Assembly (NCBI GenBank): GCA_963555755.3
Contig: OY820905.2
Span: forward strand, 2,592,001-2,656,000
Source of the DNA: Nitrospirales bacterium
GTDB taxonomy: Bacteria; Nitrospirota; Nitrospiria; Nitrospirales; UBA8639
DNA length: 64,000 nt
Reading direction: 5' to 3'
Position numbers and translations under genes: made by a program. Within the stretch, counting starts at the first letter, position 1. Each line of letters begins with the position of its first letter. Below, piece after piece: positions 29,635 to 32,722 of this stretch. The notes below the pieces were generated by a model that saw only the letters and a list, made by a program, of their open reading frames with translations, was not told the DNA's origin and made no database searches.

Positions 29635-30358
29635 GATACAATATTATTGTCAATGAATCTAAACAAATTTTTGTATGTGTATATATTTCGGATCAATCAC
29701 AATTTTGGTGGAGTGAGGCTAGCCCCTCGTTTGGTATTCCCGTAAAAGGGGGTCCCGGATGTGGATGCCTAGACCATGCCCCCCACTCCTAGGGTAGTGT
29801 TTCATAAATGCGTGTGCCTATTCGATGAACCTCAGGCTCGTGTCATTTCGACCAACGAGAGAAATCCTTGTCTCGAGCAAAGCGAGAGATCTCTTCCAAC
29901 CTTTCAAGGATTTCTCACATCCGTTCGACATGACACAAAGGGAAGGCCATTTCCCCATAACCATCACGGTAGAGAGTGAGCGCCCATACGAGCAAGAACA
30001 GAGAGAAACACTAGACGAGAGGTTGATCTTGCCTGCCCTGGTTTAGGGAAAGGGATGGGGTACCTAATAAGGGGCGCCACTACAAGGATGATGCTGTGAC
30101 CCTGGTTCGGCATCACCACAGCATGGCCACACAATAGGCCCCGACTCCACCAAAATTGCCACTGATCCTATATTTCCCCTTAAAGACATTGTTTTGATCA
30201 CCAAAATATTTTATTGAGAAAAATTGGCGCCTTAAATTAAAACTATTTGAAATAACCTCAATTTTCTATCATAAAAAAGGGGAATTATATCGCAAAGTGC
30301 CGAAATCCCTTGACCCGATCCGCCTTCGGCACTATATTGTAAGAACAAGGAGGCGGAC

Positions 30359-31302
30359 ATGACACACAAAGCACCAGGAAAATTCCACCGCAAAGGGCTC
30401 ACGCTGGCAGAGCTTTTCCGCATGTTCCCCGATGACGCGACGGCGGAGCGGTGGTTCGCCGATCAGCGCTGGCCGGAAGGGCCGCATTGTCCCTACTGCG
30501 GCTCGGTGAACGTCCAGTCCGGCGCCAAGCACAAGACCATGCCTTATCGTTGCCGCGAGAAAGAGTGCGCCAAGCGGTTTAGCGTCCGCACCAAGACGCC
30601 CATGGAATCGTCGAAGCTCGGCTTTCATGTCTGGGCGGTCGCGCTGTATCAGGTCACGACAAACCTGAAGGGAGTTTCGAGCATGAAGCTCCACCGCGAT
30701 CTGGGGATCACGCAGCGCTCGGCATGGTTCCTCGCGCATCGCCTTCGTGAAGCCTGGAAGGATCAGGGTTCACAGTTTGTAGGCCCCGTCGAGGTGGACG
30801 AGACGTTCATCGGCGGCAAGGAAAAGAACAAGCACGCCAACAAGAAGCTGCGGGCAGGCCGTGGCGCTGTTGGGAAGGCAATCGTTGTTGGTGCCAAGGA
30901 TCGCGAGACGAACCGCGTGAGTGCCACTGTGGTTAGCAACACAGACGCCAAGACGCTACAGGGTTTCGTCGGCGAGCGCGCAGCCAAGGGAGCGGGGCCG
31001 TCTATACGGACGACCATGGCGGATATCAGGGTATGCCGTTCGAGCACGAAACCGTGAAGCACAGCATCAGCGAATACGTGAACGGGATGGCCCATACCAA
31101 CGGGATCGAATCGTTCTGGGCGCTACTCAAACGCGGCTACCACGGCACCTATCACCACATGAGCGAAAAGGACCTTAGCCGGTATGTTGGAGAATTTGCC
31201 GGACGCCACAATGACCGAAGGGCCGAAACAGTGGATCAGATGATCCGAATGGCGCAGGGCATGATAGGCCAGCGCCTTCGATACTGAGACTTGATTGCGT
31301 AG
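30359..31302 (+). pseudogene. IS1595 transposase, frameshifted near 30995 and premature TGA at 31285
   Basis: CPYCG, VEVDETFIGG in frame 1; VYTDD...HTNGIESFW..KRG..G.YH..S in the shifted frame. Confidence 0.85.
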
Positions 31303-31482
31303 CGGCTGACCCTTAATCTAATTGGACTTGGCTAACAATCAGCCTTTTTCTCCTGATCGCTCATATTGCTGCTAGTAGACCCAAAGCCGTATTCTGGCTT
31401 TTGGTAACTATACTGCGGTAGATCCTGTTGCTTAAGGGACTCTATTGTTGGTGTCGTTGCTTTCTTTGCCCTCGTCTCTTTT

Positions 31483-32325
31483 TCATCTTGCTGCATGATC
31501 TGTGTCCCTCCGGTTAAGTTGTTCTGAATAGTAGTGCTTACGTTTGATCCACTTAAAGCCTTCGTGCTTTGTCACCGTCGCAATTTCGGTATCACCGCCC
31601 ACAACATTCGCACCAGGCAGAAAAGCAAAATACCTCTTGGTCAGATCCACGAGAAAATCAGCTAGATCAATAGCGTCTTGGACAGGCATGGAAGAGTGTA
31701 CCAACGGCGTCGACACCTCCTGGCACACCGCCGTGATATCCTCAGCGGTCAATTGGCGTTGAACGAGCGCCACATTCATTTCATTGTCTTGACAATGTAT
31801 TAGCCGACTAATTGCCTTTATTTGCCCGCCCCACACTAATTTTTCGTCATCTTCTGCCCTAGCTAATTGCTCCGCCGGATGATTCGTCCCGTTTTCAATT
31901 TTGAATTTCCATACTTCACCCCGCGCACCCTTTGCCCCGTAACCTCCAACCCAAAATTCTAATCCGTGAGGATTGGCTGGCGCAGGGTAAATTGCATTAT
32001 ATTTGCCGACAAAGAAGTCGCGCGCGCGATTAGCGACTTGTTCAATGGTATATGATTCGATGTTCAGTGGAGCAGCCCTGGTGTCAGACAATTCTAGTCG
32101 CAAATCCTTCGCTAGATTGCTGATTGATGCCGGCCCCAAATGTCCCATACCGGCGGTCATTGCCACGATAGGTAAGCCCCTATAGAGGTTGAAAACCTTT
32201 ATGCCGTGTTGCCAAATATTAGACACCAGAGATCTGCCATCCGTGTCTGTGGAGACAAGCGACGTAGCGCTGTCCGCCGCAAACACGATGCAGTCATGCA
32301 CCTTGATGGCAACACAAACAGTCAT
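31483..32325 (-). CDS. Ntn-hydrolase / proteasome beta-subunit-like protein (IS passenger)
   Basis: M-T-VCVAIKVHDCIVFAADS (Thr1 nucleophile, AADS), KVF, FWVGGY, DAIDLADFLV, VGG.TEIATV. Confidence 0.7.
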   Translation of the reverse strand: MTVCVAIKVHDCIVFAADSATSLVSTDTDGRSLVSNIWQHGIKVFNLYRGLPIVAMTAGMGHLGPASISNLAKDLRLELSDTRAAPLNIESYTIEQVANRARDFFVGKYNAIYPAPANPHGLEFWVGGYGAKGARGEVWKFKIENGTNHPAEQLARAEDDEKLVWGGQIKAISRLIHCQDNEMNVALVQRQLTAEDITAVCQEVSTPLVHSSMPVQDAIDLADFLVDLTKRYFAFLPGANVVGGDTEIATVTKHEGFKWIKRKHYYSEQLNRRDTDHAAR

Positions 32326-32543
32326 GATCTGATGTGGCTAAAGGAGACGGGCCGGCCTACCTTATGTGGAGTCCGATTCGGACCCTGCGGTGGGTTCGTC
32401 TCGTCACGCCGTTCAGCGCCGCCACGGGTGACAGCCCAAGCCAACGCGTCAGGTGTGGCATTGATGCCCACGTCCTCTTCTATCTCGGCTTTGCTGGGCT
32501 GATGGGAAGAAGGACTCACTCGCCTCTGCACGCACTTATCCAC
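32322..32543 (-). CDS. small IS1595-associated hypothetical protein
   Basis: QPSKAEIEEDVGINATPDALAWAV; ATGA overlap with the Ntn gene; AGGGAG RBS. Confidence 0.5.
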   Translation of the reverse strand: MDKCVQRRVSPSSHQPSKAEIEEDVGINATPDALAWAVTRGGAERRDETNPPQGPNRTPHKVGRPVSFSHIRS

Positions 32544-32722
32544 GGGATATCCTCCCTAGCTGGTCCTCACCCTCAAGCACACCACATATAGTGTGCCTGA
32601 ACCATTGACACCCATTAGTTCCCATGTTTTCCCCGATGTCCACAGATATTAACTAAAGTGGTTTAATCATCCGCCATCAGCCACCGCTAGCGGCTGTTCG
32701 GCACTTTGCGATATAAGTCCCT

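Follow-up and report, generated by a model that had tools for sequence, protein, structure and literature searches.

Organization of the element

The window analysed here is a 64,000-nucleotide stretch of a Nitrospirales genome (assembly GCA_963555755.3, contig OY820905.2, forward-strand positions 2,592,001 to 2,656,000), and all coordinates count from its first letter. It contains an IS1595 transporter insertion sequence (IS), a 2442-bp element at 30280-32721 that carries a gene for a proteasome-like N-terminal nucleophile (Ntn) hydrolase and, coupled to it, a small gene for a putative partner peptide. By its sequence the hydrolase is a member of PMI-2, a family catalogued without a reported genomic context. 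Comparison across 183 loci suggests a context for it, in which PMI-2 would act as a peptide-gated protease in defence. The result is a real element and a known protein family in a new, testable systems-level context.

The element ends in 25-bp terminal inverted repeats (left, 30280-30304, forward strand; right, 32697-32721, reverse strand) that are complementary at 24 of 25 positions. Copies of the 8-bp sequence TAAAAAAG lie directly outside both ends (30272-30279 and 32722-32729), which bears out the boundaries first proposed. IS1595 elements duplicate 8 bp of their target. The right copy is also the U-tract of an adjoining hairpin that resembles an intrinsic terminator (32730-32757, reverse strand), located 3' of a 4Fe-4S gene (32793-34082). 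The element was inserted at this U-tract, and its cargo has the orientation of the neighbouring molybdopterin/4Fe-4S operon. We take the 4Fe-4S gene to be nxrB-like and the operon to be nxrAB. The hairpin is present without the element in two close relatives of the same genus (L082 and L083). The element occurs once in the 4.6-Mb genome that carries the window (G000), and its cargo is unmatched in all 30 related genomes compared.

A sister element in a gammaproteobacterial metagenome-assembled genome (L004) is 91% identical over 2234 bp, ends in the same repeats and has its own, different 8-bp duplication, TTTCATTG. Since the same element occupies another site in another phylum, the passenger travels with it. 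Along L004:2590-5016 the cargo is 97-98% identical to the window copy versus 89% for the transposase, and this gap suggests recombination or a cargo swap between IS copies. The window element shares with the transporter ISs tISCpe8 and MTnSag1 (PMC5704250) an IS1595 DDE transposase, 25-bp inverted repeats, a target duplication and passenger genes. It differs from them in that the passenger is PMI-2 with its peptide rather than a resistance gene, and in that the transposase is broken.

The transposase is of the IS1595 type, matched by PF12762, PF12760 and NF033547 over two frames, and is a pseudogene, as the original prediction stated. Its N-terminal part (30359-31057, forward strand), with zinc ribbon, helix-turn-helix (HTH) and the start of the DDE domain, loses its frame near 30989 through a net 2-nt insertion. 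The C-terminal part (31033-31287, forward strand) stops at a premature TGA (31285-31287), five codons short of the usual end of the family. Contigs of other public runs are identical to the window at the frameshift (X2, X5, X7) and at the early stop (X1, X5, X7, X10), and these independent contigs rule out assembly error as the source of both lesions. Retention of the passenger beside a decaying transposase had been read as a hint of selection. That argument does not carry, because the chance that both lesions fall in the transposase is 0.23, and four indels of one base each, either genuine or assembly artefacts, occur in the PMI-2 gene of L004, most of them within homopolymers. What does show selection is the codon statistics of the PMI-2 family as a whole.

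A proteasome-like passenger of the PMI-2 family

The hydrolase gene (31483-32325, reverse strand) is intact and antisense to the transposase. Its 280-aa product, which has no propeptide, begins Met-Thr and contains the predicted AADS, lysine (Lys43) and VGG motifs. Thr2, Asp18, Lys43 and Gly59 are the equivalents of proteasome Thr1, Asp17, Lys33 and Gly47, and the same four residues align with the N-terminal catalytic motifs of Anbu in a weak profile match. An AlphaFold model (predicted local distance difference test, pLDDT, 90.2) retrieved proteasome beta subunits in Foldseek (E 5e-9). In VIA the best match was again proteasome beta (Z 19.1, root-mean-square deviation 2.8, 187 residues aligned), followed by Anbu (Z 18.4), HslV (13.6), BPH (13.0) and Connectase (10.9). 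The modelled protein is thus of the proteasome-beta-type Ntn hydrolase fold that had been predicted, not of a non-Ntn fold.

The nucleophile position is conserved, as had also been expected: among 115 divergent representatives it is Thr in 104 and Ser in 11, with Asp18 present in all 115, Lys43 in 114 and Gly59 in 112. With 22 loci set aside for a broken or truncated frame, 161 of the 183 have an intact one; of these, 136 have Thr as residue 2, 23 have Ser and two have Gly. Database searches with PMI-2 and the peptide gave nothing useful in Pfam, NCBIfam or PADLOC; phmmer found no PDB match for PMI-2, and profile searches returned only weak Anbu or proteasome matches. Homologues numbered 1711 at E<=0.001 among 2939 candidates, with 318 clusters at E<=1e-30 in a 50% library.

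The homologue at L025 is WP_137109689.1, 48% identical over residues 1-278 (E 3e-76). This protein is given as a representative of PMI-2 (Fuchs, Alva and Lupas 2021, PMC8665760), and the window protein is therefore assigned to that family on sequence grounds. PMI-2, 'Proteasome homolog with Multiple Insertions' 2, was catalogued computationally in 2021, when 22 proteasome homologues were listed without a functional clue, and its authors found no genomic context hinting at function (PMC8665760). The description of a hydrolase of unknown role holds to the extent that no function or context has been published, but the protein already belonged to a catalogued family.

Published PMI-2 and the window protein share fold, triad, absence of a propeptide and an occurrence in bacteria plus euryarchaea, and may also share a helical insertion in the C-terminal half. 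The insertion of PMI-2 lies between helices H3 and H4 (PMC8665760); the window model has extra helices at residues 181-204, ahead of the last long helix, which may correspond to it. Context marks the difference: none was reported for published PMI-2, whereas here members of the family are seen to have a small gene coupled to them, to be linked to toxins in some loci, and to travel on IS1595 elements and prophages.

Known relatives resemble PMI-2 to different degrees. The 20S proteasome beta subunit and HslV share the fold (Z 19.1 and 13.6) and the Thr1, Asp17, Lys33 and Gly47 equivalents, but PMI-2 differs from them by the missing propeptide, the extra helices and a dedicated peptide partner. 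No alpha-subunit or ATPase gene recurred next to PMI-2 in 80 loci, a count that does not cover partners in trans. Anbu comes close in structure (Z 18.4), with the most aligned residues (195) among the ten best-ranked matches, a likeness to which the absence of a propeptide in PMI-2 adds, and it is the only sequence-level PDB match of profile A1, a weak one (E 2.4). The PMI-2 model nevertheless has no long C-terminal coiled-coil helix of the Anbu kind. None of the genes that we take to make up Anbu operons (ATP-grasp, alpha-E, transglutaminase) recurred in the PMI-2 neighbourhoods examined.

An overlapping gene for a putative partner peptide

Directly downstream of PMI-2, a gene for a 54-aa peptide (31332-31496, reverse strand) overlaps the 3' end of the hydrolase gene by 14 nt. 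Its start codon and a GGAGG ribosome-binding site sit in the last PMI-2 codons, and the product carries the motif PxYxYQ..GFGS. This open reading frame (ORF) had been missed, and the view of PMI-2 as a stand-alone protein does not survive it. Of 173 loci, 142 have a coupled small ORF 3' of PMI-2; among 754 other long ORFs from the same loci, taken as controls, 59 do. The rule asked for ATG or GTG within -25 to +40 of the stop, a ribosome-binding match of at least 4 and a length of 40-150 aa; ten loci whose sequence ends too soon after PMI-2 were excluded, some of the control ORFs are spurious, and the loci are not independent of one another.

The original prediction had instead paired PMI-2 with an upstream 73-aa ORF (32322-32543, reverse strand), as a toxin-antitoxin-like unit. 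In favour of the pairing, this reading frame is uninterrupted, and its stop codon overlaps with the start of PMI-2. In the sister element (91% identical), however, identity in this region falls to 68% and there are indels, compared with 97% for PMI-2 and 98% for the downstream ORF. No match to it was found at any other PMI-2 locus, it has no Pfam match, and an ORF of 50-150 aa ending at the PMI-2 start occurs in just 17 of 147 loci. The 73-aa ORF is rejected as the partner on these grounds; a toxin-antitoxin-like role for this pair is hardly credible, and from the sequence comparison the ORF is most likely a chance reading frame over the non-coding leader of the PMI-2 operon. The idea of a toxin-antitoxin-like or anti-phage role itself fares better, since it finds comparative support through the downstream 54-aa ORF.

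Selection acts on the downstream gene as well. In the partner peptides, pN was below pS in 25 of 26 non-overlapping pairs, and pooled dN/dS was 0.19 compared with 0.08 for PMI-2, values to be read with many synonymous sites near saturation and one pair with a wrongly assigned partner. Codon statistics thus place both PMI-2 and its partner under purifying selection. K, S, P and E are abundant in the peptides, and those from the part of the family that includes the window copy share PxYxYQ. Of 146 non-redundant partners, 40 contain YxYQ; 1000 shuffles gave 0.5 on average and never more than 5. Other clades carry different motifs, for example the Rhodobacterales peptides.

Fusions of PMI-2 to the peptide were sought in the stored homologues and in longer proteins (7992 scored, with one match, a PMI-4-like frame); none was convincing, and their absence is weak evidence. 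A promoter scan gave three sites where 2.3 were expected, none of them upstream of PMI-2. In alphaproteobacteria, TGATTC lies about 20-30 nt upstream of PMI-2 starts (L008, L010, L011, L015, L021-L023, L030, L031, L045), a possible promoter or methylation motif.

A conserved central motif with variable flanks is also what a processed tag might look like. PMI-2 could be a transpeptidase similar to Connectase, cutting the peptide at the motif and ligating a fragment to a target or cyclising it, so that the peptide would be a tag or the precursor of a small modified peptide. Second-shell serine and aspartate positions of the proteasome are replaced in PMI-2 (in the numbering that we presume), which is compatible with such chemistry. 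Connectase, also homologous to the proteasome, reads one short motif in one partner protein, and its first residue is Thr or Ser (PMC7980362); Thr and Ser likewise alternate at the corresponding PMI-2 residue (136 and 23 of 161). The Z score of the model against Connectase is nonetheless 10.9, far below the 18-19 reached with proteasome beta and Anbu, and the putative PMI-2 substrate is encoded in the same operon. Connectase has lost helices H1 and H2 (PMC8665760), while PMI-2 keeps helices at residues 68-80 and 94-110 that correspond by position to this pair. No modifying enzyme, transporter or ligase was seen to recur around the loci, and the fusion of the partner to antitoxin modules, described below, would be left unexplained. 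A transpeptidase is therefore an unlikely identity for PMI-2.

Three-gene forms with toxins

A toxin-like gene on the same strand, within 520 nt, follows PMI-2 and its partner in 30 of 183 loci, or in 29 of the 150 with at least 700 nt of downstream DNA. Pfam matches above cut-off comprise PIN (14 loci), Fic/Doc (two loci, one sequence), PemK/MazF (two) and ParE (two); three further RelE genes fall below the Pfam cut-off, and the remaining labels come from similarity to the Pfam-assigned toxins. Partner length changes with this context, from a median of 59 aa without a toxin (113 loci) to 68-142 aa, median 95, with one. The longer partner carries an antitoxin module and overlaps or abuts both neighbours, so that by sequence and position it is likely an antitoxin set before several different toxins. 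Whether or not a toxin is linked, the catalytic triad of PMI-2 shows little or no variation.

Toxin linkage recurs with at least four toxin folds in separate lineages. On a FastTree phylogeny of 144 intact PMI-2 sequences, the 23 labelled rows correspond to nine changes, at least five of them forced by starred branches; these changes do not separate gain from loss. In the methanogen phylum (that of G033), all 11 strong PMI-2 matches from 251 genomes are three-gene loci as judged from their sequences, five of them repeating earlier loci and two having a broken RelE.

Some features would suit a more prosaic arrangement, in which the peptide is a separately encoded propeptide or assembly factor of an ATP-independent stress protease and toxins are mere frequent neighbours on mobile DNA. 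PMI-2 has no propeptide, most loci consist of two genes only, and a related methanogen paralogue looks vertically inherited. But where a toxin is present, the partner itself has the antitoxin module and touches both neighbours, and mere neighbourhood sits poorly with linkage to so many toxin folds. The distribution of PMI-2 is sporadic and mobile, and the housekeeping-like paralogue has no peptide gene. We consider a propeptide role in trans quite improbable.

A swappable slot before toxin-antitoxin pairs

The toxins found behind PMI-2 also occur elsewhere. One PIN clade gave 12 matches in 201 genomes, 11 besides the query. Four of the 11 stand behind PMI-2 with a long partner (two repeat earlier loci); six have no PMI-2 and a short partner of 59-89 aa that amounts to approximately only the shared C-terminal helical module; and one stands behind a TIGR04255 gene with a 120-aa partner. 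The partner is extended only where a PMI-2 or TIGR04255 gene lies upstream. In the 30 methanogen RelE loci examined, the pair types cannot be told apart by the length of the partner. Here a similar antitoxin C-terminus occurs behind PMI-2 (four loci), PMI-4-like genes (two) or TIGR04255 (two), or else is joined to an AbrB-type DNA-binding domain (two, weak matches); the remaining loci have no PMI gene, several lacking any called upstream ORF. The third gene at L127 is related to the gene 3' of TIGR04255 at L288 (E 7e-14). From these comparisons the toxin-antitoxin pairs occur independently of PMI-2. Because related pairs stand alone or behind TIGR04255, PMI-2 appears to fill a swappable slot, by analogy the one that SecB occupies in toxin-antitoxin-chaperone (TAC) systems.

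TIGR04255 we take to be SecB-like. A single-sequence model of it was unusable (pLDDT 31.8), and a PDB profile search gave no real match. Its genes (L206, L257, L264, L277-L300) are usually followed by a coupled ORF of 100-230 aa and often by a third, toxin-like gene (PIN, RelE and others); some of the partners match PADLOC PDC-M32. These loci look like a large, undescribed set of three-gene toxin-antitoxin systems, judging by gene order and similarity, and a limited literature search found no publication linking TIGR04255 with a toxin. Sister families of PMI-2 show related layouts. PMI-1-like genes, with Glu for Asp17, and PMI-4-like genes precede an antitoxin and RelE in methanogens, and two PMI-1-like genes have the three-gene layout (sister-family loci L228, L229, L249, L254, L196, L211 and L212). 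Elsewhere PMI-4-like genes, one of them in a Porphyromonas prophage, precede ORFs of 55-71 aa.

The PMI-2 family resembles TAC systems (HigBAC, CmdTAC, MqsRAC) in layout, as an analogy, with three genes, exchangeable toxin-antitoxin warheads, an aromatic antitoxin extension, a regulatory third gene and a prophage location (10.1101/2024.02.24.581848). The chaperone of TAC systems binds a disordered extension of the antitoxin by its aromatic motifs, and phage proteins compete for that binding (10.1101/2024.02.24.581848). The differences are considerable: in place of SecB there is an Ntn hydrolase whose catalytic centre is intact, its gene comes first, and the antitoxin extension is N-terminal rather than C-terminal. 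About five in six PMI-2 loci, including the window, are toxin-less. The window unit is not a TAC system, because it has no SecB and no toxin lies in the window.

This analogy raises the possibility that PMI-2 is itself a protective binder in the manner of SecB, stabilising the antitoxin tail until a competing phage protein exposes the antitoxin to host proteases; toxin-less units would then be remnants or stand-alone sensors. It shares its slot with TIGR04255 before related PIN, RelE and a third toxin-like family, and YxYQ would be an aromatic short motif of the sort that TAC chaperones read in a disordered antitoxin extension (10.1101/2024.02.24.581848). Against it, the triad of PMI-2 is kept with and without toxins. 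Toxin-less units, moreover, are the large majority and are under purifying selection, and so are ill-suited to being remnants. On balance a protective binder seems rather unlikely.

Mobility and distribution

PMI-2 lies inside the repeats and 8-bp duplications of five IS1595 elements, namely those of the window, L004, L015, L023 and L185, and the proposed transporter-IS status is thereby upheld; the four outside the window have at least three different repeat sequences. IS1595 transposase matches were found near ten further PMI-2 loci, and L003, L009, L012, L071, L097, L123 and L140 have a nearby transposase for which no pair of repeats with duplication was found. Phage-related settings are also common. 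At L018:6453-10216, in what is either a prophage or a gene-transfer-agent cluster of an alphaproteobacterium, PMI-2 and the peptide gene are inserted between the genes for the large terminase subunit and the portal. Further copies stand beside lysins or integrases (L044, L069, L070, L022, L062) and head and baseplate genes (L041, L045), and PMI-2 occurs on 23 viral contigs. A search of plasmids gave no match, and GenBank phages yielded one distant, PMI-4-like match. In the phylum to which G000 belongs, 301 genomes were compared, and a close copy was found in G000 only.

For enrichment in defence islands, which had been put forward as a check, a sample was taken of 131 nearest-neighbour ORFs out of 280 listed, without a background control. 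It contains prophage, IS, and toxin-antitoxin or restriction genes, with housekeeping genes mixed in. At L052:5406-7158, PMI-2 lies just upstream of a known defence pair formed by RmrT (PADLOC E 4e-44) and a gene for an HTH-metallopeptidase.

PMI-2 as a candidate defence switch

Taken over the loci compared, PMI-2 is likely the switch of an undescribed defence system. As to mechanism, we favour, with slightly less than even confidence, a peptide-gated and probably sequence-specific protease that would act as the switch or trigger of a likely anti-phage module. Coupled translation would supply PMI-2 and the peptide in matched amounts. The low-complexity peptide would dock through its aromatic YxYQ at the active-site cleft, as a pseudo-substrate or slow substrate, and keep PMI-2 occupied until a phage protein, or a host shut-off that depletes the labile peptide, frees or activates the enzyme. 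In three-gene forms the peptide would be the N-terminal tail of the antitoxin, and PMI-2 would remove the antitoxin and so release PIN, RelE, Doc or MazF. In toxin-less forms such as that of the window, the role of effector would fall to PMI-2, which would cleave a target of the phage or the host. We infer from gene order and coupling that the peptide is the cognate ligand of PMI-2, and that its grafting onto an antitoxin would place the toxin under PMI-2 control.

Several observations weigh against a peptide-gated protease, beginning with the effector step, which lacks direct support because 153 of 183 loci have no recognised toxin, the window and its 24-row starred clade included. The aromatic motif, even in a loose form, occurs in 76 of 146 partners, leaving about half without it. 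Short YxYQ peptides and PIN antitoxin tails gave an hhalign probability of 0.8%, not significant, so that their functional equivalence would rest on position, not homology. The antitoxin label itself derives from position and from homologues in two-gene pairs, the partners having no antitoxin Pfam match. In the active site, Gln168, Ala239/Asn240 and Val242 stand at the motif-equivalents of residues that we take to be proteasome Ser129, Asp166 and Ser169. With these second-shell positions replaced, ordinary hydrolysis by PMI-2 is not assured by its sequence. The PADLOC 2.0 system models matched neither the window proteins nor two toxin-linked PMI-2 proteins. Contigs of RNA runs cover the cargo without differences, but their depth is flat along each contig, with adjoining non-cargo DNA covered in run X10 at a depth similar to that of the cargo, so transcription is not demonstrated.

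Genomic context adds two further points. For many PMI-2 copies the neighbours are housekeeping genes and not a defence island. In methanogens a distant paralogue (L231-L246; about 316 aa, E about 1e-22) has no peptide and looks like a housekeeping gene. Of 251 genomes of the methanogen phylum, 100 gave a match, and in most of these the match was this paralogue; the ten loci inspected had core-gene contexts and no coupled peptide. Its flanking genes are often what we take to be hisF on one side and a gene similar to DNA glycosylases on the other. The paralogue may belong to the group by vertical inheritance and, on this sequence evidence, counts against a purely mobile picture. The early view that homologues would not be housekeeping enzymes is thus supported by the sporadic, mobile distribution of PMI-2 but qualified by this paralogue.

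A broader form of the peptide-gated protease model can be put forward tentatively. PMI-2, together with PMI-1-like and PMI-4-like proteins, might be the sensor-protease of a modular and widespread 'toxin-antitoxin-protease' immunity in bacteria and archaea, in which a short aromatic tag can be grafted onto any antitoxin; the toxin-less IS form would be a protease-plus-inhibitor cassette, complete in itself, for defence. If so, a proteasome-fold enzyme would join the sensors that arm toxin-antitoxin defences in bacteria and methanogenic archaea, and the proteasome fold would serve as a phage-triggered switch. No paper was found that links a proteasome homologue, PMI-2 or other, to a toxin-antitoxin system or partner peptide, in a search short on subscription literature; the toxin link and the exchange with TIGR04255 appear new. 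PMI-2 gains a candidate substrate, a motif and, through its three-gene forms, a toxicity read-out, and the function of ATPase-less proteasome relatives becomes directly testable. Protein engineering might also gain a tool, as it did with Connectase, from an Ntn enzyme that is sequence-specific and whose tag is short and portable.

Other features of the window

The surroundings of the element contain further traces of mobile DNA, and G000 is rich in IS1595. A second, intact IS1595 transposase lies at 28508-29452 (reverse strand), in an element with 40 near-identical copies in G000. At 29522-29634 there is a nested perfect palindrome with 22-bp outer arms and a 44-bp perfect hairpin, single-copy as a full unit. 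A 369-bp segment (29800-30168) recurs with 98% identity at G000:C1:1614035-1614402, and shorter related sequences occur elsewhere; the segment is enclosed by 30-bp imperfect inverted repeats (29685-29714 and 30144-30173) and is possibly a miniature element.

Farther downstream, an AT-rich islet at 46386-52000 contains an IS1595 gene alongside what are presumably an AIPR-like gene, a DNA methyltransferase and an HTH protein, and probably represents restriction-modification. The block at 58500-64000 has 63-72% GC in a genome of 50% GC and lies between IS copies; it holds what we assume, from the translations, to be a long Sel1-like repeat gene (61403-63517) and an integrase-like ORF, and it looks recently acquired.

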